Shown one piece after another: positions 30,075 to 58,728 of a stretch of DNA of 64,000 nt (position 1 is its first letter; every line of letters begins with the position of its first letter). The DNA is from an uncultured delta proteobacterium (GTDB lineage Bacteria; Desulfobacterota; WTBG01; CAIYCZ01; CAIRTM01), in contig CAWDSQ010000030.1 of assembly GCA_963804955.1 (NCBI GenBank), positions 160,001-224,000 on the forward strand, read 5' to 3'. Below the pieces are notes generated by a model. It was not told the DNA's origin, did no database searches, and saw nothing but the letters and a program-made list of their open reading frames with translations. The translations under genes and the position numbers were made by a program.

Positions 30075-30136
30075 GCATAGCTTTCTGACAGGCAAGCCGC
30101 TGCCGCGGACACAGTCTCATGACGCCGGCCGTTTTT

Positions 30137-31435
30137 TTACTCAATGAGCTTCATCTTGGCCCGTATTTCCCTGCGCGCAGTTATATTCATGGCCAGAAAT
30201 AGGGCCAGATGATGCAGGCTGCTGCAATTGGTCTTGAAATCCAGGGCCCTGCGCAGTATTGCCGATGCGTTATTGAATGCCATCCTTGCCCGTATGCAAC
30301 CCTGCTTAAGCTGCTGCGGTGCCATCTGCCGGGGTATGAAACTGACCTCGCCGTAGTTGTATTTTTCATGCAGCCACCACGCATCGTCTAAAAGCCGGCC
30401 TTCGGCTTTCAGCCGATCGTAGAGCCCTGTGCCGGGCATGGGGTTCAGGGTGTTGAAGTTTGCCAGGATGAACTTGTGCTTTAAGGCGAACTCGAGAGTT
30501 TGATCGAAGACATCCTCGGTGTCGAAATCATACCCCAGGACAAAGGAGCCATAAATCATGATGCCATGGTCTCTGATTCTTTTGATGAAGGCAGGATAAT
30601 CCGTATCCGACCGGTGCGATCCCTTGTGCATCTGCTCAAGATTGCCCACTCGCAGAGATTCAAATCCAATTATGAAAAGAATGCAGCCGCTTTTTGCCAT
30701 GAGCGAAAGCATTTCGGGGTCGCGGGCAACATCGATGCTGATCTGGCAGCCCCACCATAGTTTCAGCGGAATGAGCGCGTGAAAGAGTTTTTTTGCCTGC
30801 GCCTTGTTTGACAGGATGTTATCGTCGACAATGAACATGGTGCGGCGCCCCCCGCGCTTTATATCGTCAATAACGGATTCCACGGGTCTGACGCTGTGGT
30901 GGCGCCGGTTGAATACGTTTACCGTGCAGAATTCGCAGTCATAGATGCACCCCCTGGTGAATTCCACCGGAAAGATCGGGTTGTAGCGCTTGTTTTCAAA
31001 CAGCCCCATGTCATAGCGGGCATGCAGGATGGCCTCATGACCCTGTTTTTCGTATACGCGCGCAAGGCTTCGTCGCATTGCATCCCGAACGACATTTTCC
31101 CACAGTCCCTCTGCAGGCCCTTTCACCACCGCATCGGCATGTTCAAGCGCTTCCCCCGGGATCAGGGTGGGGTGATATCCTCCCATGACTACCGGGATGC
31201 CGCGGCTCCTCAAGCTGTCGGCTATTTCATAGCTTCTTCTGGCGGAAAAGGTATGGACGGATATGGCCGCCAGGTCGGTATCCAAATCAGAAGGGATTTT
31301 TTCGATGCACTCATCATAGAGCTCTTTTTCCACACCCGGCGGCGTATATCCCGAGAGCGCTGCAATCCCCAAAGGCGGCAGCGCATCGGCGGAGCGGCCT
31401 GCGGTCATGTTGGGTTTAATAAACGTTATCTTCAT
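30137..31435 (-). CDS. Cobalamin-binding radical SAM enzyme (type B paralog)
   Basis: MKITFIKPN.., GGYHPTL, RGCIYDCEFC, VDDNI, IGFESL and PMPGT. Confidence 0.9.
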   Translation of the reverse strand: MKITFIKPNMTAGRSADALPPLGIAALSGYTPPGVEKELYDECIEKIPSDLDTDLAAISVHTFSARRSYEIADSLRSRGIPVVMGGYHPTLIPGEALEHADAVVKGPAEGLWENVVRDAMRRSLARVYEKQGHEAILHARYDMGLFENKRYNPIFPVEFTRGCIYDCEFCTVNVFNRRHHSVRPVESVIDDIKRGGRRTMFIVDDNILSNKAQAKKLFHALIPLKLWWGCQISIDVARDPEMLSLMAKSGCILFIIGFESLRVGNLEQMHKGSHRSDTDYPAFIKRIRDHGIMIYGSFVLGYDFDTEDVFDQTLEFALKHKFILANFNTLNPMPGTGLYDRLKAEGRLLDDAWWLHEKYNYGEVSFIPRQMAPQQLKQGCIRARMAFNNASAILRRALDFKTNCSSLHHLALFLAMNITARREIRAKMKLIE

Positions 31436-31511
31436 GTTCGACGCCTGCCGGATAGCTCGCGGCGCCTGCGCCGGCAGCAGACCAGCAGGGGGGCCGGAAA
31501 CGGGATTGCGC

Positions 31512-32873
31512 TCATGCGGGAAGCTCCTGTAAAAGCTGGTCGTAAAAATGCTGAACAAAAGGCAGCGCTGAGGCCGTTGTGCCGGTGCTCAGAGTGAGTT
31601 CGTTTCTGTAGGACGTGCATAACACCATCATCAGGGGTGGGTACTGCACTGCCGACAGGCCCCAGGCGCGCACGGGAGGCCTGTCAAACGTCAGGGCTCC
31701 ATCCGGGAAAACGCCCCGGTTGCTGAAGATGTTGGGGTATTTGCCTGAGTCGATCTTCTTGCGCATGAGGGAGAAAAGCACCCTGGTCTGCAGGTTGAAT
31801 GGCGCATATTTCCAGAGGGGTATAAAGCATAGCTGATTGAAGCCATGCCAGTCGCGCTTGCGCCGGCTGGTTGCCGCATGCACGCGCTCAAGGGTATCGT
31901 CAAAGGCGGCTCCAAGCGTTGTTGCCAGACAGGCTGAGTCCAGGCCGATCAGGTTTGTCACGGCAGTGCCGGTATCTTCGGGCAGATAGCTCGACTTCAG
32001 GTCGACGAGATACGTCAAGCGCAGGCTGCATTGGCCGTTCCATTCGGTGAGGGCTACCTGGCTCCTGAAATAGGCCGCAAGGAGCATGTCGCTCATCGTG
32101 GCATTGCGCGAGCGTGCATAGGCCCGCAGCTGCAGCACCCGCTCGCAAGGCAGATGCCGCACTGCATGGGCAGCAGGATCTTTTGGCCCGTACGGTGGGC
32201 GCAGGGCAAGGCAGGGCTTTTGCTCCTGCAGCATGGTGCGGGCAGTGTTGCCGATAATGCGGGGCCATGCGGCTAGCGGGATACGGGCGAACAGCGCTCG
32301 GCTGCCGCGGTATGCCATGTTTTCCTCTGGAAGAAAGCCGGGCTCGACGGCAAGGCGGGTGTAGATCGATGACAGAACGCGCAGGACATAATCGAACCGC
32401 CGGCCGTCGCAGACGAGATGGTTGCATTTGGCAAGAAGCCGGTCTTCAGAGGAACCGGTGAACAGGCACAGGCGCACCTGCGGCCCAGTGCCTGCAGGCA
32501 GATTCGTCAACTTGAACTGCTCAAGCCGGTCCCGGCTTTCGGTGACATAAAATATCTCTTCCCGAGACCACGTGGCCTCTTCCCAGTAGGGGCGCCAGGC
32601 AGCATCTACAAAACTGCAGCCAAGGATGGGCAGGGCCTTAAAAAGAAGCTCCAGGGCACGGTAGAGCCTGTCGTGATCAAGTCGGTGCTCAAAAACCATT
32701 TCGTTGAGAAAGGTCTTTGAGCCAAAATAAAGATCCCGGTCAAGGGCCATCATGCGGTCAGCGCTTACCGCAGAAAATGTACGCGGTGGATTCATCATGG
32801 ATGCTCCGGAATTAATTTTTTTGCCTTCTTTCACATCAAACTCGTAGAAAGCAGCCGTATGCTCATCAGTCAT
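31512..32873 (-). CDS. Stand-alone condensation-domain / CoA-dependent acyltransferase
   Basis: NHLVCDG (HxxxDG), ATMSDMLLAAY, VDLK and FSNRG. The real start is probably ATG 32873 (overlaps the upstream stop) or 32798. Confidence 0.75.
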   Translation of the reverse strand: MTDEHTAAFYEFDVKEGKKINSGASMMNPPRTFSAVSADRMMALDRDLYFGSKTFLNEMVFEHRLDHDRLYRALELLFKALPILGCSFVDAAWRPYWEEATWSREEIFYVTESRDRLEQFKLTNLPAGTGPQVRLCLFTGSSEDRLLAKCNHLVCDGRRFDYVLRVLSSIYTRLAVEPGFLPEENMAYRGSRALFARIPLAAWPRIIGNTARTMLQEQKPCLALRPPYGPKDPAAHAVRHLPCERVLQLRAYARSRNATMSDMLLAAYFRSQVALTEWNGQCSLRLTYLVDLKSSYLPEDTGTAVTNLIGLDSACLATTLGAAFDDTLERVHAATSRRKRDWHGFNQLCFIPLWKYAPFNLQTRVLFSLMRKKIDSGKYPNIFSNRGVFPDGALTFDRPPVRAWGLSAVQYPPLMMVLCTSYRNELTLSTGTTASALPFVQHFYDQLLQELPA

Positions 32874-34218
32874 GCTTTGCAAGAAAAAGCGGCAGCCGTG
32901 CATCGGCTTCGTGAAGCTTACGGGCATAGTGCCTGACGCCCAGGTTTGCACCAAGCAGCAGGAACCGGCCTTCCCGGGCATTGCAGAACCGCTTGAAAAT
33001 ACGCTGCATGCTGTAGCTGCGGCGCCACACATCATGCAGCAGATTCTGCAGCGCGGCAGGGCGAATATGCCGGGGCTGAAAAACCACATGCTCCTGATCA
33101 TAATAGCGCCAGTCTTCAGTGAGAATTCTGCCTTCGGCCCTGATGCGCTCGAAAAGCCGGGTGCCGGGAAAGGGTGTAATGGCGGCAAATCGCACGAGAT
33201 CAAGCTCCAGATCGTCGATCCGCGAAACCATCTGCCCGAGTGACTCGGGCGTATCGCCGTCCAGCCCGAGCATGAAGGTTCCGAGAATCCCGATGCCGCG
33301 GTTGTGCAGGGTCCGCACCAGATCACGGTAGGCAGCGATATCGTTTGTGTCTTTTCGTTCCACGGCCAGGCTCTCAGCTGAGAATGACTCAAATCCCATG
33401 AGTATTCCCTTGCACCCGCTTGTGACGGCAAGCTCAAAGAGTTCTCGATCCGCAGTGAAATCGGTGCCCGCAAGGCCGCCCCAGTGAATATTGAGCGGTA
33501 TGAGCCGGCTGAAAAGCTCTTTTGCATAGTCCTTGTCATAGGTCAGGTTCGGGTCAAGGAAAAGGATCATTTTAGAGCCGAGCATCCTGATTTCTTCAAC
33601 CACTTCGTCAATATCCCTGCGGTACTGATTCCCCCAGAGGTGATTGATGGCGCAGAAGTCGCATTGGTTACCGCAGCCAAGCGTTGCAATGACTGTGGGC
33701 ATCGGCAAATATGCTTTTTTGCGCAGCAGATCCCGTCGGGCCACCGGGTGATGAATTCGGTCGCATGGCTCCTGGCAATAGATTTTCTGCGGAGCGCCTG
33801 CAGCAAACTCCCGCAACAGCTGCGGCCATGACCGGTCCCCGGCACCCACGACAACGGCGTCGGCATGCATGGCTGCTTCCTGCGGCATGAGGGTGGGGTG
33901 CGCGCCGCCCAGCACGGTGACAGCGCCGCGCTTTTTAAAATAATCGCACAGCTCGTAAGCGCGCGCAGACGATGAAGCGCAGCAGGTTATGCCCACGACA
34001 TCCCAGCTTTTTGCGTCATAATCAGCCGGCTCCGTTCCCTCGTCAACAATGTCGATTTGCGCGTTCAGCTCTTCTGGAACAAGTGCTGCAAGCGTGGTCA
34101 GCGTCAGGGGCGCATAGGTAACGGAACTGCGGAATATGCCGTTATAGTAATACGTGGCGTCGCGCGCAAGAATGATCAGAATTTTCAAGGCGCTGCCGTG
34201 TGCTGCGTTATTCATCAC
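32866..34218 (-). CDS. Cobalamin-binding radical SAM enzyme (type A paralog)
   Basis: YAPLTLTTLAALVP, GGAHPTL, GCGNQCDFC, LDPNL, MGFES and TPFPGT. Confidence 0.9.
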   Translation of the reverse strand: MMNNAAHGSALKILIILARDATYYYNGIFRSSVTYAPLTLTTLAALVPEELNAQIDIVDEGTEPADYDAKSWDVVGITCCASSSARAYELCDYFKKRGAVTVLGGAHPTLMPQEAAMHADAVVVGAGDRSWPQLLREFAAGAPQKIYCQEPCDRIHHPVARRDLLRKKAYLPMPTVIATLGCGNQCDFCAINHLWGNQYRRDIDEVVEEIRMLGSKMILFLDPNLTYDKDYAKELFSRLIPLNIHWGGLAGTDFTADRELFELAVTSGCKGILMGFESFSAESLAVERKDTNDIAAYRDLVRTLHNRGIGILGTFMLGLDGDTPESLGQMVSRIDDLELDLVRFAAITPFPGTRLFERIRAEGRILTEDWRYYDQEHVVFQPRHIRPAALQNLLHDVWRRSYSMQRIFKRFCNAREGRFLLLGANLGVRHYARKLHEADARLPLFLAKHD

Positions 34219-34356
34219 GTTAAAAACCTCGATGTTAAATGCTGTTTCAGGACTGCCGTGCTAGTGGCTTTCGTATTCCTCTTCGGCTTCAAGCCGACCC
34301 TGGTTCTTGATCCCATGCTGGCAGGTAGCAGCAGTCTTATCATCCCCTTTGGTGGC

Positions 34357-34537
34357 TAGAGCATGTAACTTTATTCTGTAACCGTTTGCACCGGGGACTC
34401 TTTGGTTCATTCGCCCGTGCTAGATTCTCGCAAGATACACCGATTGAGGAACTACGCCAATGGCTCGAACCGCACGGGCTGCTTCACCAAAAACTCCCCG
34501 GTGACCATATGGCTACAACATTTTGTTAAATGCTCTA
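34357..34537. mobile_element. 181-bp MITE-like palindromic element with TA ends
   Basis: Terminal IR TAGAGCATGTAAC / GTTAAATGCTCTA (12 of 13 match); inner IRs CACCGGGGA/TCCCCGGTG, TTTGGT/ACCAAA and GCCCGTGC/GCACGGGC. Confidence 0.6.
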
Positions 34538-34642
34538 AGGCCCCTTTCCACCCCTGCCTGAATATCTTGCTGCACTCCTGCCTTTTGCAGCCCGGTATTC
34601 TTATCGGGATATTCGCGGACCAGACTGTCGGGCTCCTTCTCT

Positions 34643-36388
34643 TTAGTCTGCAGTGCCATGGCCGGGCCTTTGCGCAGCCGGCGCCGTGTCAATTCTGATA
34701 TTTTTGATCCGCGCATTTGTCCCTACCTCGACGCTAAAGCGCGGGTAGGGGCTGTTCTTCTTCACATATACAGCATAGCCAAAGCCTGTGCGCATCCAGG
34801 AAAACGCGCCGGTTGAAAGATCGAGGATATCGATGGGGTGCAGGGAGCGCGGCCATGCCTCGCTCAGAAAGCCGGGACTGATGGCAAACGAGGTCATATA
34901 GTCGTAGTGCTCTTTGAACAGGGGTTCTTCGACTATGCCCGCAGCGCTGCCGGGATAAATATCGGATGACTTCATCCGCACGGTGTAGAGGAAAACATAA
35001 TCAGGGGCCAGGCTCAGGAGCAGTTCAAGCTCCCTTTTTTTAAAGGAGACGAAGCTGGCTGAGGGCGGGAAAAAAGATATATCGGGCGAACCGTAGCGGG
35101 CTTTGAGGTCTGCAAAATCACGGCTGGTGAGGCCGACCAGGTCCAGGGTGGCGGCCCGGGAAATATAGGCGAAGTAGCCCACATCGCCGATGGCTATGAG
35201 GGGTTTTGTCCCCAGTTCGCGGCGGACCCATTCGCCGAAAGTTCCCCAATTGAAGCGGGCACAAGCCCCAAGTTCACGCCATCGGTAATTAAAAGCCAAA
35301 TCCCTACAGAACTGATCGCCGGCTACAAACAGCAGGCCCGCTGCGAGTGCCGCCCAGAGCAGCTTTCTGGCCGCTGTCGGCGCCCATGAGCGCCAGAGCT
35401 CGGCCAGCAGCAGCTGGCAGCAGATGATCATCAGGGGCACCACGGGCAGATTATAGCGGAAATAGGGCATCCACTCCCAGGCGGAAAAGCAGAGGCTGGG
35501 CACAAACCCCGTGGCGATAAAAACATACAGGGGCGGCAGCATGCATCGTTTATCCGGCAGCCGCACAAAAATAAAAAACGGCAGAAGAAACAGAAGCCAC
35601 GCATAGTTGGTGAAAAAAGCGCGGTTGATAAAAAAGCCCATCAACAACTCCACATACAGGGGCATGGAGCCTTTGGCATAGTAGGTATTAGGAAGCAGCA
35701 GGCCATAGTAGTGCAGGCGCCACACAAGAAAAGCGCCGTAGCACAGGCAAAACAACAGTATGCCCGATAGCATTGGCCGCAGGGATTCTTTGTTTGAAAA
35801 GCGCCGCCATAGCAGCCAGGCGCAGTAGGCAAAGAAAAAAAGTATGCCCTCGGGCCGGGTGAAGGCTGCAAGCAGGAGCATAAAAAAAACACCGAAACAG
35901 CGGCCCTGGCTTTTGTGCGCCCTCATGCCTGCGGCGGCTGCGGCTGCCACCAGCATGGTGTAGCAGGAAGTTTCAAGACCTGATGCGGCATAAAACTGGA
36001 GGGGTAAATACAGCAGATACAGCAGAGGGCCGGCAAGAGACAGTATCCCCCGTACTGCGAACCAGCGCCAGGGGATGAACCATACCAGCAGCAGCGTCAG
36101 GCTGTTGCACAGGGCGCCTGCCATGCGGCTGACGCTGACCATGTCAAAGCCGAGCCTGTGCGCAGCGGCAAGAGAAAACATCCAGAGCGGATTGGAATAG
36201 CCCTCGACGCGCTCGCCGGGATTAAAGACCGGGCCATAACCGTCAGCGAGATTTCTGGAAAAGCGGAAGGTGATATAGGCGTCTTCACAAGGGTCGGGGG
36301 TCAGCGAGAAAATATAAGCCAGTTCCCCGGCATATATTCCAGCCACCAGCAGCCCCAGTATAAAGAGCCGGTTTTTTCTAGCAGCCAT
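34643..36388 (-). CDS. Polytopic GT-C-like membrane protein (AftB/ArnT-like)
   Basis: EDAYITFRFSRNLADGYGPVFNPGERVEGYSNPLW, SGLET, TRPEG, PNTYYAK and DLVGL; many TM segments. Confidence 0.75.
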   Translation of the reverse strand: MAARKNRLFILGLLVAGIYAGELAYIFSLTPDPCEDAYITFRFSRNLADGYGPVFNPGERVEGYSNPLWMFSLAAAHRLGFDMVSVSRMAGALCNSLTLLLVWFIPWRWFAVRGILSLAGPLLYLLYLPLQFYAASGLETSCYTMLVAAAAAAGMRAHKSQGRCFGVFFMLLLAAFTRPEGILFFFAYCAWLLWRRFSNKESLRPMLSGILLFCLCYGAFLVWRLHYYGLLLPNTYYAKGSMPLYVELLMGFFINRAFFTNYAWLLFLLPFFIFVRLPDKRCMLPPLYVFIATGFVPSLCFSAWEWMPYFRYNLPVVPLMIICCQLLLAELWRSWAPTAARKLLWAALAAGLLFVAGDQFCRDLAFNYRWRELGACARFNWGTFGEWVRRELGTKPLIAIGDVGYFAYISRAATLDLVGLTSRDFADLKARYGSPDISFFPPSASFVSFKKRELELLLSLAPDYVFLYTVRMKSSDIYPGSAAGIVEEPLFKEHYDYMTSFAISPGFLSEAWPRSLHPIDILDLSTGAFSWMRTGFGYAVYVKKNSPYPRFSVEVGTNARIKNIRIDTAPAAQRPGHGTAD

Positions 36389-36716
36389 AAGCCTCCAATA
36401 TACGCGTATAATTTAGATGTTTGGATGCGAACCAGTTCACAAACAGACTGTTTTTTTGGCATGTCCTAGTATAAAGGCAACTGTGACATGAGCTGCCAAC
36501 TGATGCAATGCCAGTCAGGCGCCAGCCCCGGCAGCCATGCCGGCCTTTCCGTTGGCGGGCAGCCGCCTACCGGCTCTCCCGTATGCGGGAAACAGCAGGG
36601 AGTATACCGGATGACCTTTTTCATAGGCGAGTATCTTGTTATCACCGAGCATTTTCTCGAAATAGCTCGCGCCCATATTCGACAGGGCTTTAAAAGTTCT
36701 AACAGTGCTGCATGGC

Positions 36717-37829
36717 TCATAGTGCTGCGACCTCTATATAGGGGATGCGATTGTCAAGAGCGCTGTGCCAGCCCGCTGCATCGTCCCAGCAGATTGTGTA
36801 GAGAATGCTTTTGTAGGACAGATGAAGAAGGTTGCGGGCAGGCGCAAGCAGCGGATCGTTTTCCGCAAGCCCCACCATAAGGTATGCGTAGCCGCGCTGC
36901 GCAGCAAGATTATGGACATGCCGGAGCAAAAGTGAAAAAATACGGGCATCATTGTTTTCCATGCAGACAAAGCTGGCATAGGCCATGCGCAGCTCTTCTC
37001 CCGGGGGCGGCAGGGGCCGGGCGCCCAAGAGCCGCAGGCCCAGGTTGAACGGCCGGCGAAGGCTGCCTAGGGGCCAGCTGTAGCGCTGGATGACTATCTG
37101 CTTGCAGGAGGATTGGTCCCAGAGCCCGATGATGCCGGCGAGCTTTCCGCTGCGGCGGGCCAGAAGGAAGTCCCGGACATCAAAGCCCCGGGTGCGGGGG
37201 CTGCCGCAAAAATCATTTTCGGTGTAGCAGGGAAAAAACTGTTTTTCGCAGCCGCGGCGCCGCAGAAATTCAATTATCTCCGGAAGCTCCCCGGCTGTGC
37301 CGCGGCATACCTGTATTTTATCAGTGGTCACTGCCAGCGGCCGGCGGACAATGATCGCCAGCGTCCACAGGCGGCAGTAGGGCCGCACCGCCGGATATCC
37401 CGGCCGGGGCCGGTCTACAAACAGGCCTACCGGTTTGGTATTGCCTTCAATGATTGAGGCAATATAGCCCTGCACGCGGCCGTCGGCGTGAAGGCTTCTG
37501 AGCCACCGATGCCCCTGCGGCGCCAGCTGCAGCCACCGGCCCTGGAATTTTTTATCAACGCGCAGCTGGCTGTAGTAGCCCACCTCCTGCTCCCTCCCGT
37601 TAACAAAAAGCGGGCAGCTGGAACGGCCCATGATGCCCGCAAGCGCGCCGTCCGGCCGGTGGCGCGCCATGAGAACCTGGCTGAAGGGGCCCATGGTAGC
37701 GCAGCCCGGAAAATAATCGGGCTCGCGCAGATAATTCAGCGTTATGGGCCCCGGCATGGGATTTGCCGCAAGCAGATGCCGGATATCGGCATCATCGGCC
37801 TGCCCTGCAAGCCTGAGCTCAAAATCCAT
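36717..37829 (-). CDS. GNAT-like acyltransferase (probably tandem GNAT)
   Basis: RLAGQADD.., GYYSQLRVDKKFQGR acetyl-CoA-binding-like motif. Confidence 0.65.
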   Translation of the reverse strand: MDFELRLAGQADDADIRHLLAANPMPGPITLNYLREPDYFPGCATMGPFSQVLMARHRPDGALAGIMGRSSCPLFVNGREQEVGYYSQLRVDKKFQGRWLQLAPQGHRWLRSLHADGRVQGYIASIIEGNTKPVGLFVDRPRPGYPAVRPYCRLWTLAIIVRRPLAVTTDKIQVCRGTAGELPEIIEFLRRRGCEKQFFPCYTENDFCGSPRTRGFDVRDFLLARRSGKLAGIIGLWDQSSCKQIVIQRYSWPLGSLRRPFNLGLRLLGARPLPPPGEELRMAYASFVCMENNDARIFSLLLRHVHNLAAQRGYAYLMVGLAENDPLLAPARNLLHLSYKSILYTICWDDAAGWHSALDNRIPYIEVAAL

Positions 37830-37859
37830 TGCCGCCGCCCCTGTAGTTGTGCGTTTGCA

Positions 37860-39215: not shown

Positions 39216-39217
39216 AC

Positions 39218-40495
39218 CTACTTCCCCTGAAGTGTTTTATAAAAGCCCGGATATTCAAAATGCCTGAGCTTTTTGCAAATGCTGCAGGAATCCTCCACAG
39301 CCGTCGGCAACTGCTCAATGCCCATTTCCCGGATCTTTTCAGCCACCTCCTCTCCCATGCACCGGCCTTTGGGTTTGCCGATGAGGCTGTTCATGCGCGG
39401 CCATAAATTTTTAATGCTTTCCTGCCGGACATTGCCGAATGACAGCGGCACGAGATCGCAGGGCTGAAGCTCCCCGGAGGCGCTTATGTAGGAATGCTGC
39501 ACCCCGGCCGAGCACCCGAGCGTTTTGAAGTCTTGAACATGGATCTCGGAGGAGACTTTCATGCCCGACATGGTCCTGTTGGCTTCAGCCTGAATTTTTA
39601 AAAGCAGGCGCCGGGTTTCATCGGTGTAGGAAATATCGCTGAGGTCGTAGAGCGCCCGGCCGATTTTTTTCGGCTCCATGATGACGACATCCTTGACGCC
39701 GAGTGATTTTGCGAAATTGAAAAGTTTGAAAAGCTCCTCGCGGTTGATGCCTACCTTGGGGATCACGGATATGATAGCCGTGTAAAAGCCGTGGCTGACC
39801 GAAAGCTTCAGCGCTCGCACGGCATTGTCGAAAGAGACGTTGACCCCGCGTATTTTGTTGTCGGTGTCGCGGTCATAGGAGTTAAGGCTCACGGCAATAG
39901 CGTAAAGCCCGCTTTTTTTCAGTGACGCAGCCCGCTTTTCGTCAAGACCGCAGCCCGTGGTGAGCAGGTAGGTGACCGAGCGGCTGTCGATTGCTTCAAT
40001 GATCCGCTCCAGGTCCCGGCGCATCAGCGGCTCGCCGCCTGTGAATGAAATTGTGGGGCCGTTCATGTCCTGCACATCCTTCGCGACCCTGATCCACTCC
40101 TCGGTCGTGAGCTCGGGGCCAGGCTTTTTTCCGTCGTTGCTGCAGTAATAGCATTTGTAGGAACAGGCGTTTGTGACGGCGAAGCAGAATGTGGCAGGGG
40201 CTGATTTCTCAATGCGGGCATGCTGCGAGAAAATGTTTTTGCTGCTGGGCGTAGATTTAATAAAAGTCATGAAGGCTTCAGACGGTATGGGAGGAACGGT
40301 CATGTTGTGAAAAAACTGGCCGTTGTCCAAAACGATCATTTTGTCGACACTCAGCAGGCAGCGCATGGCTTTGCAGAGTCTGACCAGAGAGTAGGAAGGA
40401 TCTTCTTTCAATAGAGCATGCACCTGCCGTAAAAATTTCCTGGTTTTTTTGTCCAGAAACATGCGAATCATTACCGTCAAATTGATAAAAAACAT
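39218..40495 (-). CDS. Radical SAM enzyme with SPASM/twitch domain
   Basis: TNACSYKCYYC, FTGGEPL and GCSAG..ISASGELQPC..FGNV..C. Confidence 0.88.
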   Translation of the reverse strand: MFFINLTVMIRMFLDKKTRKFLRQVHALLKEDPSYSLVRLCKAMRCLLSVDKMIVLDNGQFFHNMTVPPIPSEAFMTFIKSTPSSKNIFSQHARIEKSAPATFCFAVTNACSYKCYYCSNDGKKPGPELTTEEWIRVAKDVQDMNGPTISFTGGEPLMRRDLERIIEAIDSRSVTYLLTTGCGLDEKRAASLKKSGLYAIAVSLNSYDRDTDNKIRGVNVSFDNAVRALKLSVSHGFYTAIISVIPKVGINREELFKLFNFAKSLGVKDVVIMEPKKIGRALYDLSDISYTDETRRLLLKIQAEANRTMSGMKVSSEIHVQDFKTLGCSAGVQHSYISASGELQPCDLVPLSFGNVRQESIKNLWPRMNSLIGKPKGRCMGEEVAEKIREMGIEQLPTAVEDSCSICKKLRHFEYPGFYKTLQGK

Positions 40496-40523
40496 GGGTT
40501 TCTCTCTCAGTAAAGTGTTGGCG

Positions 40524-42167
40524 TTACGCCGCGAAGCTGCCGCTGAGCGTATGCTGCCAGTCCGATTCCTTGCGCAGGGCAAGCAGTTTTGCATCTCCCA
40601 TGCCGCCGCAGGCGCCTGCAATTTTTTCAAAATAGCTCCGCTCGGGGTTGCCGCTTGTACGAAACAGCCGCAGGGGCGCAAGCTGCGAAAGGCTGCGCGC
40701 ATGGAGGTAGTGATAGTTTTCCATGAGCCCCTGCTCCATCGCGGCCCGCAGGGTTGCGGCATCAGGGTCGGTTGCTGCGCTGTAAAAAAAGACGTAGCCC
40801 GAGCCTGTCTCGTCCGGGGCCATCATGGCGAAGCTGAAGCGCGTGCAGAGTTCTTTTTCGGCTTGCCGTATAACGGATTCGACATGCCCCAGATGCAGCT
40901 TTTCACCGACCAGGTCGGTAAGGCAGTTGTCGCGCCCTGTGAACTCAAGCAGGGGCAGGCGGTTGAAGAATCCGGTGACCCTGACAAGATCGTGCAGCCG
41001 GTAGCGGTACAGCCCGCCGCCGGTTGTCATGATGGCGCTGTAGGTGCGGTCTTTTTCAATGCGCCACAGCGGCTGTACCTCGCCCGTGCCGGTGTCTGCA
41101 AATTCCAGAAAATGGGACGTGACGGCTGCGACCCGGTGGCCGGCAGGTCCTATCGGGATCGATACGACACCCTCTGTCGCGAGAAGCCCCTTGGGCTGGA
41201 TGGCCGCCTGCGGGAAGCGCTCGGCAAGAGCGGGCAGGCTGTGGGCCGACCAGCCGTCAGCCCAGCAGCTCAGCACTTTCAGGTTTGGCCAGATGCCCGC
41301 AAAGCCGTGCGCCCGGATATCGATGTTTTCCAGATAGTCAGCCCGGCCGGGGCAGGGGCGCAGGTACCTGGCGAACAGGGAGCGGCTGGCAGGCTCCGGC
41401 ACGGCGCTGGTGCTGATCGAGCCGAGCCTCAGGTCGCGGGTAAGCTCCGTAAAGCGGCGCTCGATGAGGTCGGCAAGAATCGACAGCACTGACGGGTGCC
41501 ACACTGAAATAAGGCGCAGGTTTTCCTGGCGAAGCAGAAAAAGGGCGCTGAGGTAGAGAAAGCTCTCCGTGCCGGCCACTGCCGCTGTTTCATGGGGCAC
41601 GCACATGAGCCGGCTGCAGCAGCGCATCTGAAGTGCGCTCAGGTATGCCGCATCGGGCATGAATCTCACCGGAACCTTTGAGTCCGCACTATCCTTCGGA
41701 TGCGTGTGCGGCGTCGTGACCCAGTACTGGCTGCCGCCGTGCAGGGCAGGGGTGTGCAGGAAGAGTGACGCCAGCCAGGGGCTGAGGGCCGCGCGGAACT
41801 GCCGAAGGAGCGACGGCGTGTAGGGAATGAGCTTGGTGGCGCTTGAGCTGCCGCTTGTGGGCACCAGCGCCAGAACTTCTTCCGCGGTCAGGACAGCCCT
41901 GCCGCCCTGCCTGATTCGGCTGATGTAGCCTTCCAGGTCTTCATAGCCGCACACGGGCACGGACCGGAAATCCTCATATGTCCTGATGCCGGAAAAGCCG
42001 TGGCGCCTGCCGTAGTCTGTGTCGCGGTTTGCCGCAATGATGCTGCGCAGCAGGCTCCGCTGAACCTCTTCGGGAGCCCGGCTCGCCCGCATAAATGCAG
42101 CGTAGCGGCTCATGCACGAAGCAAGCATGCCGCGTGACGCCAGGTGCTGCATGGTTCTTTCAAGCAT
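40524..42167 (-). CDS. GH3-family acyl-adenylate-forming enzyme
   Basis: PTSGSSSATKLIPYT P-loop, LLATEG, HFLEF, TTGGGLYRYRLHDLV and GEKL. Confidence 0.88.
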   Translation of the reverse strand: MLERTMQHLASRGMLASCMSRYAAFMRASRAPEEVQRSLLRSIIAANRDTDYGRRHGFSGIRTYEDFRSVPVCGYEDLEGYISRIRQGGRAVLTAEEVLALVPTSGSSSATKLIPYTPSLLRQFRAALSPWLASLFLHTPALHGGSQYWVTTPHTHPKDSADSKVPVRFMPDAAYLSALQMRCCSRLMCVPHETAAVAGTESFLYLSALFLLRQENLRLISVWHPSVLSILADLIERRFTELTRDLRLGSISTSAVPEPASRSLFARYLRPCPGRADYLENIDIRAHGFAGIWPNLKVLSCWADGWSAHSLPALAERFPQAAIQPKGLLATEGVVSIPIGPAGHRVAAVTSHFLEFADTGTGEVQPLWRIEKDRTYSAIMTTGGGLYRYRLHDLVRVTGFFNRLPLLEFTGRDNCLTDLVGEKLHLGHVESVIRQAEKELCTRFSFAMMAPDETGSGYVFFYSAATDPDAATLRAAMEQGLMENYHYLHARSLSQLAPLRLFRTSGNPERSYFEKIAGACGGMGDAKLLALRKESDWQHTLSGSFAA

Positions 42168-42894
42168 GGTGCTCTACCCATGATACAGGGGTTGTTCTGA
42201 TAGAGCGCCAGGCGGACCGGTTGAGGTTGCCGGGCCGCAGCGCCGTAATGCAGGCCAACTCGTCGCCTATGACATGGCCGGGATTTTTTTTGAAAAAAAA
42301 ATCAATATGCGGGTCACTCATCCTGCCGGGTGCGACCTGCTGCATAACTGGTTTCAGGCGGTCTTTCATGCCCTGCGTCCGGATAATGCCGCTCGGGGCG
42401 TCGTAGGAGCCTCTGAATTTGAACATCGCGGCCGCATCCAGCGCATGTTGAAAAGATTGCGGCGTCGGCATGTCGAACCTGGGGTAGAATTCATTGAAGA
42501 ATACCGGCAGAAACCTGTAGGTGCGGTAGCCTTTGGAGATGAGGAACCAGTAGAGATCGCGGTCGCCAGCAATATTGAGCCCTTTTAGGATCAGGTGGCC
42601 GAAGCAGCCGGCCAGGGCGGGGTAATTGCGGCATGCCCTGTCAACGATGGTATCGCCGCTGAAAAGAAACAGCGTTTCCCTGCCGTCCACGAGAATCGTC
42701 AATATCTGCAGCGTTGAAAATCCTCCGAGTGCGGAGCCGTTGCGCAGCACGATTACCCACTGCTTCTGCTCAAGATCGCTGAAAAAGGCGTCGGGCGCAA
42801 CATTTGCGAAATACCGGCAGTGCAGCTGCAGCATCTCCTCCCGATCGGCTTTGGTCAGGCATCCCTGTTGGTATATCTGCGACTGTAGGTTCAT
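42160..42894 (-). CDS. Uncharacterised protein, probable GNAT-like fold, coupled to GH3
   Basis: FSGDTIVDRACR and YWFLISKGYRTYRFLPVFF; overlaps both neighbours. The fold assignment is inference. Confidence 0.6.
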   Translation of the reverse strand: MNLQSQIYQQGCLTKADREEMLQLHCRYFANVAPDAFFSDLEQKQWVIVLRNGSALGGFSTLQILTILVDGRETLFLFSGDTIVDRACRNYPALAGCFGHLILKGLNIAGDRDLYWFLISKGYRTYRFLPVFFNEFYPRFDMPTPQSFQHALDAAAMFKFRGSYDAPSGIIRTQGMKDRLKPVMQQVAPGRMSDPHIDFFFKKNPGHVIGDELACITALRPGNLNRSAWRSIRTTPVSWVEHHA

Positions 42895-44093
42895 GGCAGC
42901 CTTTCGTAATCGTGTTGATTGCTTTCAGCGGTAGAGCAGGCAGCGTGCCCGCACGGGGGCGATATCGAGCCGGATTCTTCAGCTCTGTCGGCATAGCCGT
43001 ACTGACTGATAAACGGCCCCCAGCGCCGGGCGATACGCTCCCGCGTTTCAGGGCTGAGGCTGAATTTGTTTTTTTTGTAGCCGGCGTTTTTTGCCGCATA
43101 TGCCTGCACCAGGGGTCTGACCTGTTCAAAGCAGTCAAGGGAAAGCGCTTTGTAGAGCTTTTCCATCTCGGCCTCGGGGGCTGCGGCAAGGTCCTCGTAG
43201 CGAATGCAGTGGAGCTGGCCCGGCGGGATCAGGTGGCGGTCGCTTTCGAATTTCAGGTGCATGCGGTTGAACACGTCAAGTACATACTCTTCGAGCTCAG
43301 CGGCATCGGGGGCGCGCAGCGAGGCGTACCGGGCGAATATGTTCCAGGTGTGGATCGCTGAAGGGAACACATCAAAGGGATTTCGAACCAGATAGACAAA
43401 CCGCGCTTTCGGAAACAGCCGAAGCAGGATGGCTGCGCGGAAGGTGTGGGTCGGCGATTTCAGGACAACCGGACGGTCCTGCCTGAAGGTGACTTTTTTG
43501 AGAAACTGCACAAGGCTGTTTTCCCAGTGCCTGCGGCTTGCGGCCGGGACTTTTTCAAGCTCATAGAAATCGGCATAGCGGCCTAAGTGCCTGATTAAAA
43601 AGTGGGTTGTGTACGGCGAGACCGCGCCCATGTAGGAAAGGGCGAATTCATCCTCCTGGGGGGTGTCAGGCCCTAACGCCATATTGTCCTGCAGCCGCTG
43701 CGATGGGAAGAAACGCTTGATGAGCGGCATGAACAGCCGATCTGCCAGCAAAAAGTTGTGCGGCGCCACGCAGGAAAAGCTCGTTGGAAAGGTGAAGCGC
43801 TCGTCCAGGCACAGCAGCTCATGCAGCAGCGTCGTGCCTGAGCGCCAGTGGCCCAGGATGAACACCGGCGCATCATGCACCTGCGTTGCCCTGATCCGCG
43901 CGCCGAACAGCAGGTTTTCAATCAGCTTTAAAACGCTCACCACCGTGCTCACTGCCGTAATGATAAGCACATCGGGGATTTTCGACGGGCTTATCCCCAG
44001 GCCGTAGCGCCGAAGGATCCGGCACCAGGCTGCAAAGTCAAAACCCGGCAGGAGCCGTAATGCAAGATAGGCTTTTACATCAAGTTTTTGCAT
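42891..44093 (-). CDS. PAPS-dependent sulfotransferase (Stf3-like)
   Basis: PVFILGHWRSGTTLLHELL (5'-PSB), PQEDEF, LKSPTH, VRNPFDVFPS (3'-PB) and IRYEDL. Confidence 0.9.
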   Translation of the reverse strand: MQKLDVKAYLALRLLPGFDFAAWCRILRRYGLGISPSKIPDVLIITAVSTVVSVLKLIENLLFGARIRATQVHDAPVFILGHWRSGTTLLHELLCLDERFTFPTSFSCVAPHNFLLADRLFMPLIKRFFPSQRLQDNMALGPDTPQEDEFALSYMGAVSPYTTHFLIRHLGRYADFYELEKVPAASRRHWENSLVQFLKKVTFRQDRPVVLKSPTHTFRAAILLRLFPKARFVYLVRNPFDVFPSAIHTWNIFARYASLRAPDAAELEEYVLDVFNRMHLKFESDRHLIPPGQLHCIRYEDLAAAPEAEMEKLYKALSLDCFEQVRPLVQAYAAKNAGYKKNKFSLSPETRERIARRWGPFISQYGYADRAEESGSISPPCGHAACSTAESNQHDYERLP

Positions 44094-44174
44094 CGCGCGT
44101 AGGATTCCTTTAAAACAAGCGTTCCGTTCGGGCTGCTTCGTCAGCAACCCGCTGCCTGCTCCAGGCAAGCAGTT

Positions 44175-45527
44175 TCATGCGGCTTTGCTCCCCAGAAGGT
44201 GATCGGTGGCCATCCACTGCTCGTCATAGGACGGCAGGCTCCTGCCGTAGAGGCGATAGCCGATATTTGCCAGGACTGAATATCTCAGAAAAGACCTGGC
44301 TCCCAGCAGGCGGCTGGTTATATTCCGCAGGCGGTAAGCCTCTTTCCAGATAGTGTGGTGCCCGTGATCGAGCTGCCCGACCGTCATGCCCCGCGGTTCA
44401 AAAACAACATGCTGGGCATCATAGAGGGCCCAGTTTTCAGTAAGAATGCGGCCCTCCTGCTTGAGTCGGTCGAAAAACGGTGTTCCGGGAAAAGGCGTAC
44501 AGACCGTGAACCGCGGCAGGTCGATATGGGCGCTGAGGACAAAATCCATGGTTTGCTGGAAGCAGTCGGGCCCGTCGCCGTCAAGGCCGTGCACGAAGCA
44601 GCCCATGATGGCAATGCCCCGCCTGTGCAGCTCGTCCGCAAGGGTGTAGTAGTCGCCGACGCTGTTGAACGCTTTGCTGATGCCGTCGTTGGTTTGCTGT
44701 GAAAGCGACTCAAAGCCGATCAAAAGCCCTCTGCATCCGCTGCGCGCCATGACATCCATCAGCTCGGGATGCCGCACCAGGCGGGTCGTGGCAAGTCCTG
44801 TCCAGAATTTTTTCAAGGGGATCATGGCGCTGTAGAGCTCCAGGGCATACTGGACGTTTTCAATGGGGCTGGGATCAACGAAGGTCATGTAGCGGCCGCG
44901 CATGGAACTTATGTCATCGATTACCTGGTCAACGGGCCGCGCCTCATAACGGCGGCACACGACCGGCGTTACGCAGAAATCGCAGGAATTCGGGCACCCG
45001 AACACGGCCTGCACGCTGTTGAGCGTGATAAAGCCGCGGTACTTCATGTGCTTGCGCAGCGGAGTTTTGAATTTTGAAAAATCGGTTTTACCTTCCGGCG
45101 GCTGGTAGCGCTTGCGGGGATTGCCGGCTTTGAAATCCCTCAGAAATTGGGGCCATGTCTCATAGGCATGGCCGGTGATGACCGTATCGGCATGGGTCAT
45201 TGCCTCCTGCGGCATGAGCGTGGAATGCACCCCGCCGAGCACTACATACATGCCCCGGCTGCGGAAATAATCAGCATAGGCGTACATGCGCTGCGAGGCC
45301 CCCGTAATGCCGGTTATGCCGACAATATCGGCCTGTATTTTTTCAGGCTCTATGGCTTCGGCGCCTTCATCATGCATTTCAATTTCGGCGGATACGTCAG
45401 GCGGCACGAGCGCCGCCAGCGTGGGCAGCGTCATGGGAGAATAGCGGAGGAATTTCGAGAAAGCGCCGGTCCCGAATCTGTATATCCCGGCTCGTGGCAG
45501 AATAAGAACTATTTTCATTGCACTCAC
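44175..45527 (-). CDS. Cobalamin-binding radical SAM enzyme (type A paralog)
   Basis: YSPMTLPTLAALVP, GGVHSTL, GCPNSCDFC, VDPSP, IGFESL and TPFPGT. Confidence 0.9.
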   Translation of the reverse strand: MSAMKIVLILPRAGIYRFGTGAFSKFLRYSPMTLPTLAALVPPDVSAEIEMHDEGAEAIEPEKIQADIVGITGITGASQRMYAYADYFRSRGMYVVLGGVHSTLMPQEAMTHADTVITGHAYETWPQFLRDFKAGNPRKRYQPPEGKTDFSKFKTPLRKHMKYRGFITLNSVQAVFGCPNSCDFCVTPVVCRRYEARPVDQVIDDISSMRGRYMTFVDPSPIENVQYALELYSAMIPLKKFWTGLATTRLVRHPELMDVMARSGCRGLLIGFESLSQQTNDGISKAFNSVGDYYTLADELHRRGIAIMGCFVHGLDGDGPDCFQQTMDFVLSAHIDLPRFTVCTPFPGTPFFDRLKQEGRILTENWALYDAQHVVFEPRGMTVGQLDHGHHTIWKEAYRLRNITSRLLGARSFLRYSVLANIGYRLYGRSLPSYDEQWMATDHLLGSKAA

Positions 45528-45584
45528 CCTTAAGGATTAATTAAAATCTTATTAACGACATGTCATATGGCTGACTGATGTTTG

Positions 45585-46781
45585 CTATACTGTCAGCCAT
45601 TTCATGCCTTCTTTATCAAGCATGTGTCCGAATTGTTTCATTCGATCCCGAATGATGTTGTTATCGACTTTCTGAGTCATTTTTGAAGACAGCGTATTCG
45701 GCGAATCATAGTATTCAAAAGGGATTACCAGATCAAATTTCGCGTCTTTTATGAATCGTACGGTATCCATAAAATCTTCTTCCGTTTCGGAAGGAAATCC
45801 GATAATCACCTGTGAATACAGTTTTAATTTTGAATTTGCAGCTTTGAATGCATTGAGGGTTTTAAGCACTTCTTTGTTATTATTATAACGATTCATGAGC
45901 TGTAAAATTCTTTCACTGCCGGACTGGATGGGAAACATAATTTGAGTAATTGTTTTTTTCTCTATTCTTTTTATGATTTCATCCTGATTTTGCACCGCCC
46001 ATCGTGGATATAAATGCAATAAATACCATTCAATCCCATGGTCCCTGCCATTACCGTTTTCGTTATGATGAACTCCGGCCAGCTCATGTAATAATTCGCT
46101 TAACGAGGAACCGATATCAGAGCCATAGGCCCCAACGTTATCTGAAAAAAGTTTGAACTTTCGATAGCCTTTGTTTAATAATGATGCATATTCATTTTTT
46201 AATTCCTGAAGGGATTTGCTTTTCAATGGTCCGATCGCTTTTCTTATTCCGCAATAGGCACATTTTTCATTACATCCCCGGCCGATACGCAAATAGGGTA
46301 TCTGCTTTCCTGCGGAGAACATACTTAATGAAGTAAATTGTTTGTATAAGTTTTTATTTAATTTTATTTCCGGCAATGCTTTTTGAAATATATAAGACAG
46401 TTTCGGGTATAAATAATTTGCATCTTCCACCATGTTGAATTTGTATCTGAAATTCGGAAAAAAATCATCTATCTGTTCCAGTTGTTTTGTGGAAATGCAT
46501 TTGCCTGAAAAATTTTTCGATAATTCCTCAGGCGCAATTTCAGGAAGGCAACCGGCAACAATCAGCTCTCCCTTGTATGTTTTGTATTTCCGGATATTTT
46601 CAATGCTGGCATTTTTTCTGTTTTCTTTAAAACTGCAGGTCACAAAAATTATATAATCCGCCTTTCTGGCCGATGATACCATCCTGCAATCATTTATTTC
46701 AAAATATCTTATCAGTCGTGACATATCCAGATCGCGTCCCGGACAACCATTTGAACTGATATATATCCGTTTTGCATTCAT
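45585..46781 (-). CDS. MiaB/RimO-like methylthiotransferase-family radical SAM protein lacking a TRAM domain
   Basis: N-terminal GC..ADYIIFVTC..VAGC triad, GCNEKCAYC, PIQSGS and IIGFPSETEEDF; ends at 398 aa; AT-rich. Confidence 0.8.
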   Translation of the reverse strand: MNAKRIYISSNGCPGRDLDMSRLIRYFEINDCRMVSSARKADYIIFVTCSFKENRKNASIENIRKYKTYKGELIVAGCLPEIAPEELSKNFSGKCISTKQLEQIDDFFPNFRYKFNMVEDANYLYPKLSYIFQKALPEIKLNKNLYKQFTSLSMFSAGKQIPYLRIGRGCNEKCAYCGIRKAIGPLKSKSLQELKNEYASLLNKGYRKFKLFSDNVGAYGSDIGSSLSELLHELAGVHHNENGNGRDHGIEWYLLHLYPRWAVQNQDEIIKRIEKKTITQIMFPIQSGSERILQLMNRYNNNKEVLKTLNAFKAANSKLKLYSQVIIGFPSETEEDFMDTVRFIKDAKFDLVIPFEYYDSPNTLSSKMTQKVDNNIIRDRMKQFGHMLDKEGMKWLTV

Positions 46782-47040
46782 CTCGCGCCACTTTTATTTA
46801 TTAATTGTTCGAAGCCAACTGAATATCAACCTGCGCTATTGTCTTCAGGAGCCATCGCCTATGAGGGTGGTTGTTGACTTGTCAGGTGTTTTTTTAAATT
46901 TTCGTTTTATTTATCCGTATGATACATCTCGCGACAGCGGACCAGTCACCACTATTAACTTGTTAAAGGGGTCATACGTTACCGGACAGTATGAATTGTT
47001 CTTTTACCTTATAGCTCCCTGCTTTAAACGCTATCCTCGC

Positions 47041-47115
47041 GAGATTGCTTCGTCGTTTTGAATGCCCGCAATGCACGTGGGCGGTCATCGCGAGGCCGCA
47101 GGCCGTGGCGATCTC
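47041..47115. repeat. REP-like palindromic repeat (GAGATTGCTTCG...GCGATCTC type)
   Basis: GAGATTGC ... CGCAATG and GTCATCGCGAGG ... GTGGCGATCTC form nested inverted repeats. Confidence 0.55.
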
Positions 47116-47276
47116 ATATGTGTGTCCGCTTACTAATGATCTTATTAATCATTGTTGTCAGTTGATGTAACAATTTAGCGTCGAGTTATTCGCTGCCGAA
47201 ATTTTCCAGTTACTGTTCTACGTCCTACTCGGTCCCCTCTCGGCAACGATGCTTCAGGAATGTATTATTATTTATA

Positions 47277-47293
47277 TGCAATAAAAGTGCCTA
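47277..47293 (-). promoter_or_regulatory. Candidate sigma54 (-24/-12) promoter facing the radical-SAM cluster
   Basis: Minus strand TAGGCACTTTTATTGCA: GG-N10-GC with GGCAC and TTGCA. Confidence 0.5.
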
Positions 47294-47759
47294 AATATGC
47301 TTAAGCGTGGTAGCTTGAAATAAATGAAGCAATAACAAAGTATTAAATTATTATTTTGTTTGATGCCCTGACAGCGTCCGAATTCTTATTGGTTGTTTTC
47401 AGCCAACTTTTCAGATTACTAGGGAGCTTTTGGTTCATTACAACCAATGGCCGCTGCATTTTTTTTTAAACAAAACATGTTAAGTTTCCAGGCAACCCAA
47501 AAAAAATAAGGGGGGGATTACTTATGGATATCTGTGGAGGGCATCGATGTTTCCGGTGTTGGCAACAGAGTGCCTGTTGCCAAGCAATGGATTGAATGTT
47601 TGTCGCACCTTTGATGCCGTCAGCATACCAGGCGCAAAACGTTTTATGGTCGTTCAGGCCGGATATGGGTACGGTTTTCTGAAGATGGCAACTTAAACAC
47701 TTCGTGTTTTTGATTACGCCCTTTCAGGGCGAAATCAAGCCACCCTCTCTATGCCGGTG

Positions 47760-57131: not shown

Positions 57132-57154
57132 TGCTATTGGCTGATACGCATTTT

Positions 57155-57239: not shown

Positions 57240-57253
57240 GATTTATTTTATGG

Positions 57254-57330: not shown

Positions 57331-57348
57331 TGTGCGATACGCAAAGCG

Positions 57349-58705: not shown

Positions 58706-58728
58706 TCTGTTTTGACGGGTTGTGAGCC

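Follow-up and report, generated by a model that had tools for sequence, protein, structure and literature searches.

A predicted biosynthetic island of an uncultured delta proteobacterium, apparently built around a widespread GH3, GNAT and B12 radical-SAM gene cassette

Gene content of the locus

We analysed a stretch of 64,000 nucleotides from an uncultured delta proteobacterium (contig CAWDSQ010000030.1, positions 160,001 to 224,000; hereafter the window) and focused on a group of 12 genes at positions 30137-46781. An earlier note, made from the sequence alone, had described this group as an orphan biosynthetic cluster with six radical S-adenosylmethionine (radical-SAM) enzymes. Calling and translation of open reading frames (ORFs) yielded 12 ORFs on the minus strand of this region, all co-oriented, with the transcription order g12, g11, g10, g09, g08, g07, g06, g05, g04, g03, g02, g01. 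Scans of the 12 translations against Pfam and NCBIfam profiles with curated cut-offs confirmed the gene order that the note had given. Judged by homology and gene content, five of the genes (g11, g06, g05, g09 and g08) are a reshuffled copy of a widespread cassette, with accessory genes interleaved among them on the single strand.

The core genes encode two B12-binding radical-SAM enzymes, g11 (B12d; 44175..45527) of the 'd/b' clade and g06 (B12c; 37860..39215), a protein with a predicted single GNAT fold, g09 (unk244; 42160..42894), a predicted tandem GNAT, g05 (unk370; 36717..37829), and a GH3-family acyl-acid amido synthetase, an ATP-dependent amide ligase, g08 (40524..42167). The accessory genes encode a sulfotransferase with a Sulfotransfer_3 domain (g10, 42891..44168), a radical-SAM/SPASM enzyme (g07, 39218..40495), a GT-C-like integral membrane protein that is AftB-like over residues 36-242 (g04, 34643..36388) and a putative PapA5/condensation/WS-DGAT-like acyltransferase with an HxxxDG motif (g02, 31512..32873). 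Two further B12-binding radical-SAM enzymes are accessory as well, namely g03 (B12b; 32866..34218), a duplicate that is the second member of the 'd/b' clade, and g01 (B12a; 30137..31435) of the 'a' subclade. The first gene in the order, g12 (45585..46781), encodes a TRAM-less MiaB/RimO-like radical-SAM enzyme with UPF0004 and Radical_SAM domains, and its membership of the pathway is uncertain.

Several start and stop codons overlap, as had been claimed, by 4 nt between g10 and g09, 8 nt between g09 and g08 and 8 nt between g03 and g02 given a g02 start at 32873. Three ORFs were over-extended at the 5' end, and their likely starts are ATG 31435 for g01, 32873 or 32798 for g02 and ATG 40495 for g07. 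The g04 gene is bordered by intergenic gaps of 328 and 424 nt. The GC content of g12 is 36% (0.37 at third codon positions, GC3), compared with 52-63% (GC3 0.64-0.76) in the other 11 genes. The description of the locus as a biosynthetic or tailoring cluster without nonribosomal peptide or polyketide synthases, a carrier protein or a precursor peptide held up.

A widespread core cassette

Relatives of the GH3 gene at 33-47% identity were abundant, with 3298 matches among 8000 scored candidates. With one genome scanned per species, 585 GH3 relatives were confirmed, and the 80 best loci among them were retained; many of these end at contig edges, so the gene counts given here are lower bounds. 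Homologues of g09 were found in 74 of the 80 loci, adjoining GH3 in 71, and homologues of g05 in 70. One or more B12 radical-SAM genes are present in 60 loci; 55 have two or more, and 12 have four or more. The order B12-B12-tandem GNAT-GNAT-GH3 occurred in 42/80 loci and GNAT-GH3-tandem GNAT in 8/80. The cassette loci span more than 15 phyla, including Acidobacteriota, Verrucomicrobiota, Planctomycetota, Lentisphaerota, Chloroflexota, Bacteroidota, Desulfuromonadia-type bacteria and many candidate phyla. The window contains all components that define the cassette (GH3, a g09-type GNAT, a g05-type tandem GNAT and at least two B12 radical-SAM genes from two clades, on one strand), in an order that is unusual owing to the interleaved accessory genes.

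At E<=0.001 the tandem-GNAT profile matched 4293 cluster representatives among 1.84 billion, and 2126 of these reached E<=1e-30. Within the phylum of the host it matched 8 of 401 genomes, strongly (E<1e-80) in four, including the host genome itself. Two fusions were found among the best tandem-GNAT matches: P0127 (817 aa) joins a B12 radical-SAM enzyme to a tandem GNAT, and P0231 (874 aa) joins GH3 to a tandem GNAT. These fusion proteins indicate that the B12 radical-SAM enzymes, GH3 and the tandem GNAT are functionally tied. A 754-aa open frame across the tandem GNAT was seen in genome G422.

The extra genes of the window behave differently. PapA-like, GT-C-like and MiaB-like genes occur in 0/80 cassette loci, the sulfotransferase occurs in one (L016, where it lies inside the cassette) and weak SPASM matches occur in eight. 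The earlier note had tied its reading to conserved co-occurrence of the genes in other genomes, and in these loci this is borne out for the five-gene core and not for the PapA-like, GT-C-like and MiaB-like genes. The description of the 12 genes as an orphan unit therefore has to be given up: the core is a multi-phylum cassette, and the other genes vary even in the closest relative found. What is specific to the window is the set of interleaved extra genes, only some of which are common to that relative, and the status of the whole block as an island.

Full-text searches of one literature library found no published description of the cassette. A 2026 review of ornithine lipids (PMC12971839) does not, in the parts considered here, mention radical SAM together with GH3, and the passages considered of a 2026 review of lipid radical-SAM enzymes (PMC13459092) do not mention GH3, GNAT or DUF4070. 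Together with NCBIfam equivalog scores far below the cut-offs, this agrees with the earlier statement that no characterised pathway matches.

The GH3 ligase and the GNAT proteins

GH3 enzymes adenylate a carboxylate and transfer it to an amine. The g08 protein belongs to this superfamily, as it scores 176.3 and 57.5 bits against the GH3 domain profiles (PF03321, PF23571; cut-off 23.6) and its Ser/Thr-rich nucleotide motif, PTSGSSSATK, sits in conserved alignment columns. It lies outside the family defined by the model of the bacterial GH3 enzyme OlsH (NF052613), to which it scores 46.7 bits in two short stretches, compared with a cut-off of 620.

Neither GNAT protein matches a Pfam family, nor does g04, and a protein-cluster look-up with g09 returned only unnamed clusters. 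When the profiles of g05 and g09 were searched against PDB sequences, nothing below E 0.2 was returned. Structures predicted from alignments of relatives (pLDDT 94.0 for g05 and 95.4 for g09) were compared with the PDB. A tandem GNAT fold is predicted for g05, for which N-myristoyltransferases are the best structural matches (E 1.6e-13). These enzymes, known from myristoyl-CoA-bound structures, have the same two-GNAT architecture, but the TM-score is about 0.6 and the identity only 10-14%. For g09 a single GNAT fold with an insertion is predicted, with structural matches to NatD (Z 12.8), LasI (11.8), RpaI (11.6) and FeeM (10.8). FeeM is an N-acyl amino-acid synthase, and LasI and RpaI are acyl-homoserine lactone (AHL) synthases. 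These predicted folds agree with the 'GNAT-like' label that both proteins had received.

The radical-SAM enzymes

The CxxxCxxC motif is present in all six radical-SAM translations, in line with the number claimed. Four of these proteins (g11, g06, g03 and g01) combine B12-binding, Radical_SAM and DUF4070 domains in Pfam; their predicted B12-binding domain and radical-SAM core would place them in class B, the cobalamin-binding radical-SAM enzymes. The cut-off of the B12-binding profile PF02310 is passed by g01, g03 and g06, and g11 scores 25.8 vs 32.1 bits. A tree of 116 B12 proteins contains two deep clades (supports 0.995 and 0.90), one with g11 and g03 and the other with g06 and g01. The most conserved core member is g06, with up to 69% identity across phyla. 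An Rfam scan of the window found tRNAs only and no cobalamin riboswitch.

Enzymes such as HpnP/HpnR, GrsA/B and the ladderane-type TIGR04072 family are B12 radical-SAM enzymes that act on unactivated lipid carbons. The enzymes of the window share this class and its combination of B12-binding domain and radical-SAM core, but the cassette enzymes score far below the cut-offs of HpnR and TIGR04072 and form two clades of their own. None of them fits a named NCBIfam family, and all NCBIfam equivalogs are far below their cut-offs (HpnJ 73-87 bits vs 577.6; HpnR 40-48 vs 650; TIGR04072 52-67 vs 360). Their nearest solved structures are AprD4 and CysS (E 1e-7 to 7e-5). We rejected links to hopanoids, to glycerol dialkyl glycerol tetraethers (GDGTs) and their branched forms, and to ladderanes, as no match exceeded a cut-off. 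The cassette is also found in lineages such as gut Bacteroidales and Victivallales.

The two other radical-SAM enzymes are of different types. The g07 protein contains Radical_SAM and SPASM domains and is distant kin of an accessory family ('rSAM_c') at other loci. The g12 protein has the UPF0004 and radical-SAM domains of the MiaB/RimO methylthiotransferases, but it scores 220.4 bits against the TIGR00089 cut-off of 251, has no TRAM domain and lies outside the MiaB/RimO family. As g12 falls in a TRAM-less group, it probably targets something other than a tRNA or ribosomal protein S12.

SPASM and B12 radical-SAM enzymes occur commonly in pathways for peptides that are made by ribosomes and modified after translation (RiPPs). 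The window could encode a RiPP or protein-modifying cluster, in which a ribosomal peptide is the substrate of the radical-SAM enzymes, SPASM and B12 C-methyltransferase types among them, and is capped by GH3 and the GNAT proteins. The presence of both enzyme types is typical of such pathways, and weak NCBIfam similarity to ApyD, StsB and PqqE-type maturases was seen, but these matches are far below the cut-offs. Among 504 small ORFs (25-79 aa) outside called genes at 81 loci, none was common between loci (E<1e-4), and the small ORFs in the gaps of the window had no relatives. Furthermore, Pfam and NCBIfam scans of the window found no protease, leader-binding (RRE) domain or transporter, and some variants of the cassette have no radical-SAM gene at all. 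We consider a RiPP product very improbable and rejected it, as no small ORF of 25-79 aa was common to the cassette loci.

The sulfotransferase, the GT-C protein and the PapA-like acyltransferase

The g10 protein scores 119.6 bits against PF13469 (cut-off 27) and its translation shows an RSGTT-type motif, which assigns it to the sulfotransferases that depend on 3'-phosphoadenosine 5'-phosphosulfate (PAPS). It has a single N-terminal hydrophobic anchor at about residues 62-88. The host genome encodes an adenosine 5'-phosphosulfate (APS) kinase (264 bits), so a supply of PAPS is to be expected.

A profile of g04 and five relatives matches the GT-C arabinofuranosyltransferase AftB (PDB 9dlf; E 1.3e-10) over residues 36-242. 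The N-terminal membrane domain thus aligns over about 200 residues, and in the first loop an acidic pair, ED in g04, is aligned with DD of AftB. In this protein about 8-9 hydrophobic segments precede a soluble C-terminal part. Profile homology and topology together support its assignment as a putative GT-C protein of AftB-like type, in agreement with the earlier label. It is unlike AftB in scoring only 33.8 bits against an equivalog cut-off of 1050 in NCBIfam, and the host is not a mycobacterium. Homologues of g04 at 65-69% identity are located outside cassettes.

The HxxxDG motif that had been reported for g02 is present as NHLVCDG. All profile matches of g02 are sub-threshold (Condensation 26.1 vs 30.6, PapA_C 20.8 vs 30, PapA5 25 vs 396, and also WS_DGAT_C), and its best PDB matches are condensation domains at a weak E of 0.017. 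Genes similar to g02 occur in 13/401 genomes of the host phylum. The host genome itself contains a paralogue with 34% identity (G000:C1:1113-2399, locus L117), located beside three GT2 genes and one GT4 gene. The tailoring of mycobacterial sulfolipid-1 and phthiocerol dimycocerosate (PDIM) involves the sulfotransferase Stf0 and the HxxxDG acyltransferases PapA1, PapA2 and PapA5, which act on a glycolipid or diol lipid. The pairing of a sulfotransferase with a putative HxxxDG acyltransferase is alike in the window, but g02 is far from the PapA5 cut-off, and the window has no polyketide synthase, FadD or MmpL genes.

A genomic island and its closest relative

The 12 genes lie in an 18.5 kb block (30071..48642) that extends from just after a nuoN-like gene to a conserved right flank. 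Two genomes of the same genus keep these flanks at 88-94% identity. In one of them (G001) 114 bp stand in place of 30071-48642, and in the other (G003) 1.5 kb with a PIN-type toxin-antitoxin pair stand in place of 30071-48367. As much shorter sequences stand between the conserved flanks in both genomes, the block is an acquired island, and the place that it occupies behind the nuoN-like gene is variable. Four same-genus genomes, which are 76-90% complete, gave no GH3 match. The island occurs at freshwater or sediment sites. The end of the island beyond g12 (46782..48642) has a low GC content of about 40-45% and contains a Gp49/HigB-like toxin gene on the minus strand (47883-48245), followed by a short possible antitoxin ORF. 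In a same-genus genome a PIN-type toxin with an antitoxin lies at the same spot behind nuoN (L133:3058-3776). The different toxin genes at this spot in same-genus genomes indicate that the site is a variable hot spot. The g12 gene is compositionally foreign, with its GC content of 36%, and it may have arrived later, together with the low-GC toxin-bearing end.

The closest relative of the island is a metagenome contig, L084, in which sulfotransferase, g09, GH3, SPASM, g06 and g05 genes are followed by two extra radical-SAM genes, the GT-C gene and g03. The sulfotransferase, SPASM, GT-C and B12b genes are in the same order as in the window, at 64-94% protein identity, and g02 and g01 are not present on L084. 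The two extra radical-SAM genes occupy 2.2 kb where the window has its 328-nt gap. Nucleotide identity is about 85-86% in the cassette genes and 94.8% over the GT-C segment (34535-36577). Because of this higher identity, a recent separate exchange of the GT-C segment is suggested. In addition, L084:1904-4852 differs from window positions 40300-40900 in an A-run (AAAA vs AAA) about 70 nt before the GH3 stop, which merges the GH3 and SPASM radical-SAM genes of L084 into a 982-aa ORF. This merger could be either a genuine fusion or an error of assembly. As it depends on a single-base difference in an A-run, we set it aside as a Rosetta-stone link.

Some of these observations suit an island that is a patchwork, in which the core makes its own product and g10, g04, g02, g12 and perhaps g07 serve another target, such as an envelope glycan or glycolipid. 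The 0/80 counts of the PapA-like, GT-C-like and MiaB-like genes fit this explanation, as do the GT-C homologues away from the cassette, the divergent identity of the g04 segment relative to its flanks (94.8% vs about 85%), the gaps around g04, the low GC content of g12 and the g02 paralogue within a glycosyltransferase cluster. Against it stand the interleaving of accessory with core genes, which lie on a single strand and overlap by 4-8 nt, the sulfotransferase inside the cassette in both L016 and L084, and the recurrence of SPASM-type and other non-B12 radical-SAM genes with the cassette. On balance we regard a patchwork as rather unlikely.

Cassette neighbours and variants elsewhere

To survey neighbours, 1179 ORFs of 81 loci were clustered and representatives were scanned against Pfam. 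PAP2 proteins and their fusions with a desaturase recur beside the cassette, as do membrane fatty-acid desaturases and a fatty-acid hydroxylase. Rieske oxygenases, of which one type bears a VanA C-terminal domain, are recurrent neighbours too, together with P450, AurF-like and SnoaL/DUF4440-like proteins, two unassigned membrane proteins and non-B12 radical-SAM enzymes. Some cassette loci have MatE and ABC/MacB exporters nearby. Among the 46 well-flanked loci (at least 5 kb upstream and at least 3 kb downstream), B12 enzymes alone are found in 27, B12 together with oxygen-dependent enzymes in 10, oxygen-dependent enzymes alone in seven, and neither kind in two. The seven oxygen-dependent loci carry Rieske, desaturase, P450 and hydroxylase genes instead of B12 enzymes. 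The loci without B12 enzymes indicate that the minimal set is GNAT, GH3 and tandem GNAT, and from gene content the tailoring enzymes appear to change with lifestyle.

In Acinetobacter baumannii (L103; NZ_CP064203.1, 2532-9119) a distant minimal set without radical-SAM genes consists of an EmrB-type MFS pump, a g09-like gene (hhalign E 1.8e-38), GH3 (28% identity), a TolC-like channel and a g05-like gene (23%). This arrangement hints at an exported product in the Acinetobacter lineage. A mobilizable IncFIB/IncFII plasmid of the cultured enterobacterium Citrobacter portucalensis (L134; NZ_CP134684.1, 8247-19464) carries the cassette as g09-like, GH3, two radical-SAM, N-acetyltransferase and two more radical-SAM genes, followed by PAP2, a hypothetical gene, a radical-SAM gene and a fatty-acid desaturase. 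This plasmid was found through the GH3 query; a plasmid search with g05 gave two weak matches at 23-26% identity.

The desaturase, hydroxylase, PAP2 and small membrane-protein neighbours, together with the Citrobacter plasmid and its PAP2 and desaturase genes, point to a lipophilic product. The earlier note had proposed a membrane lipid or envelope glycoconjugate, and in this respect a lipophilic amide fits the neighbours; its analogy to hopanoids and GDGTs, which draws only on the general class of B12 radical-SAM enzymes, did not hold.

The same neighbourhoods have to be weighed against a secreted product. The cassette could make a secreted acyl- or aryl-amide, such as a signal, a surfactant or an antibiotic-like conjugate, with the extra genes tailoring the exported compound. 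Plant GH3 enzymes conjugate hormone and benzoate-type acids, and VanA-type Rieske, AurF-like, SnoaL/DUF4440-like and P450 genes lie beside the oxygen-using versions. Exporters of MatE and ABC/MacB type stand by some loci, the Acinetobacter genes are interleaved with a pump and a channel, and g09 is as similar to AHL synthases as to other GNATs. On the other hand, Pfam and NCBIfam scans found no exporter in the island of the window, whose sulfotransferase is membrane-anchored and whose glycosyltransferase is of GT-C type, and membrane desaturases, hydroxylases, PAP2 and small membrane proteins recur at the loci. A secreted lipoamino acid would in part fit an amide-linked lipid as well. We judge a secreted amide improbable for the window.

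Proposed product and pathway

Among studied systems, the OlsH/OlsI ornithine-lipid pathway of Singulisphaera acidiphila (PMC12493201) comes closest. In the passages of that paper considered here, OlsH, the only studied bacterial GH3 member, makes N-acyl ornithine from a fatty acid and ATP. The likeness to the window concerns the first step only, in which GH3 forms the amide bond of a membrane amino-lipid; the second enzyme, according to the same passages, adds another acyl chain, which may be likened to the acylation proposed for the window. Those passages do not mention radical SAM, B12 or GNAT. The window has neither the alpha/beta-hydrolase OlsI (Pfam and NCBIfam found no such domain among the 12 proteins) nor OlsG, and contains two GNAT-fold proteins and B12 radical-SAM enzymes instead.

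We propose that the island is a rearranged and enlarged copy of the cassette that makes a decorated amide-linked lipid, likely of N-acyl amino-acid type, and give this explanation about an even chance. What the data show is which genes are present, their predicted folds, how far the core is conserved, the fusions and the island status. An N-acyl amino-acid-type lipid is our best guess because of the OlsH precedent, the lipid-type neighbours, the N-myristoyltransferase-like fold of g05 and the fact that fatty acids are, to our knowledge, the one substrate class common to all cassette-bearing lineages.

In the proposed pathway, GH3 would adenylate a carboxylic acid, with a fatty or N-acylated amino acid as the likeliest candidate, and join it to an amine to form an amide. 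The g09 protein and the N-myristoyltransferase-like g05 would add acyl groups from acyl-coenzyme A (acyl-CoA) or acyl-acyl carrier protein. The B12 enzymes g11 and g06, with their paralogues g03 and g01, could methylate or otherwise modify unactivated carbons without oxygen. The product would then be sulfated by the membrane-anchored, PAPS-dependent g10, glycosylated on the outer side of the membrane from a polyprenyl-phosphate sugar by g04 and O-acylated by the PapA5-like g02. The SPASM enzyme g07 may act on the product as well, and together with the TRAM-less MiaB-like g12 it may add further radical chemistry.

A number of points weigh against this explanation. The product, its substrates, the order of the steps and its lipid nature are matters that we infer and did not observe. 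The fatty-acid substrate of g08 is proposed by analogy, given a score to OlsH of 46.7 vs 620 bits. The structural match of g05 to N-myristoyltransferases reaches a TM-score of only about 0.6, with tandem GNATs that use acetyl-CoA nearly equal, and the matches of g09 are generic for GNATs. Because g02, g04 and g12 have no counterpart in the 80 cassette loci, it is their interleaving with the core genes that points to an action on its product, and g12 is foreign in composition. The VanA-type Rieske, AurF-like, SnoaL/DUF4440-like and P450 neighbours suit aromatic or amine substrates equally well. Finally, the exporters found with distant versions, which are EmrB-type MFS and TolC in Acinetobacter and MatE and MacB-type genes at some loci, would suit a secreted compound better than a membrane lipid.

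More speculatively, the cassette may define a class of bacterial amino-lipids that is new and very widespread. In anoxic habitats B12 radical-SAM enzymes would methylate or cross-link the chains or head groups of these lipids, and in oxic ones desaturases, hydroxylases or Rieske enzymes would modify them. The island would then make a sulfated, glycosylated and extra-acylated derivative, an anaerobic sulfoglycolipid on an amide-lipid core. We think this broader proposal doubtful; if it is true, such lipids could be the source of unassigned lipids in sediments and soils.

The cassette represents a five-enzyme pathway without a known product that is encoded in thousands of protein clusters across more than 15 phyla. 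If the product were identified, a metabolite or membrane lipid that is common in anoxic soils, sediments and guts would gain a name, and two GNAT families without a Pfam entry would gain functions. The island is the richest version of the cassette among the loci examined. As the sulfotransferase, the GT-C protein and the PapA-like enzyme each need a hydroxyl or amine acceptor, they constrain the structure of the core product. The mobility of the island and the copy on the Citrobacter IncF plasmid offer a practical experimental route.

Other features of the window

Within 29500-48500, the only repeats found were motifs common to the B12 paralogues, with no copy pair. A scan for promoters and terminators was uninformative, with 20 promoter-like sites (12.3 expected) and 29 terminator-like sites (24.4 expected). 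Contigs of two metagenome runs skip 46861-47679 (815-819 bp), and metagenome contigs pile up on two short intergenic spots, at 34201-34850 and 46551-47200, where summed depth reaches up to 350 and 887, respectively, vs 2-7 elsewhere. The pile-up and skipped spots are probably short repeated or mobile elements. Outside the island, five tRNA genes (Thr, Tyr, Gly, Thr, Trp) at 57060-59012 form an unremarkable cluster around an ORF at 57509-58705.

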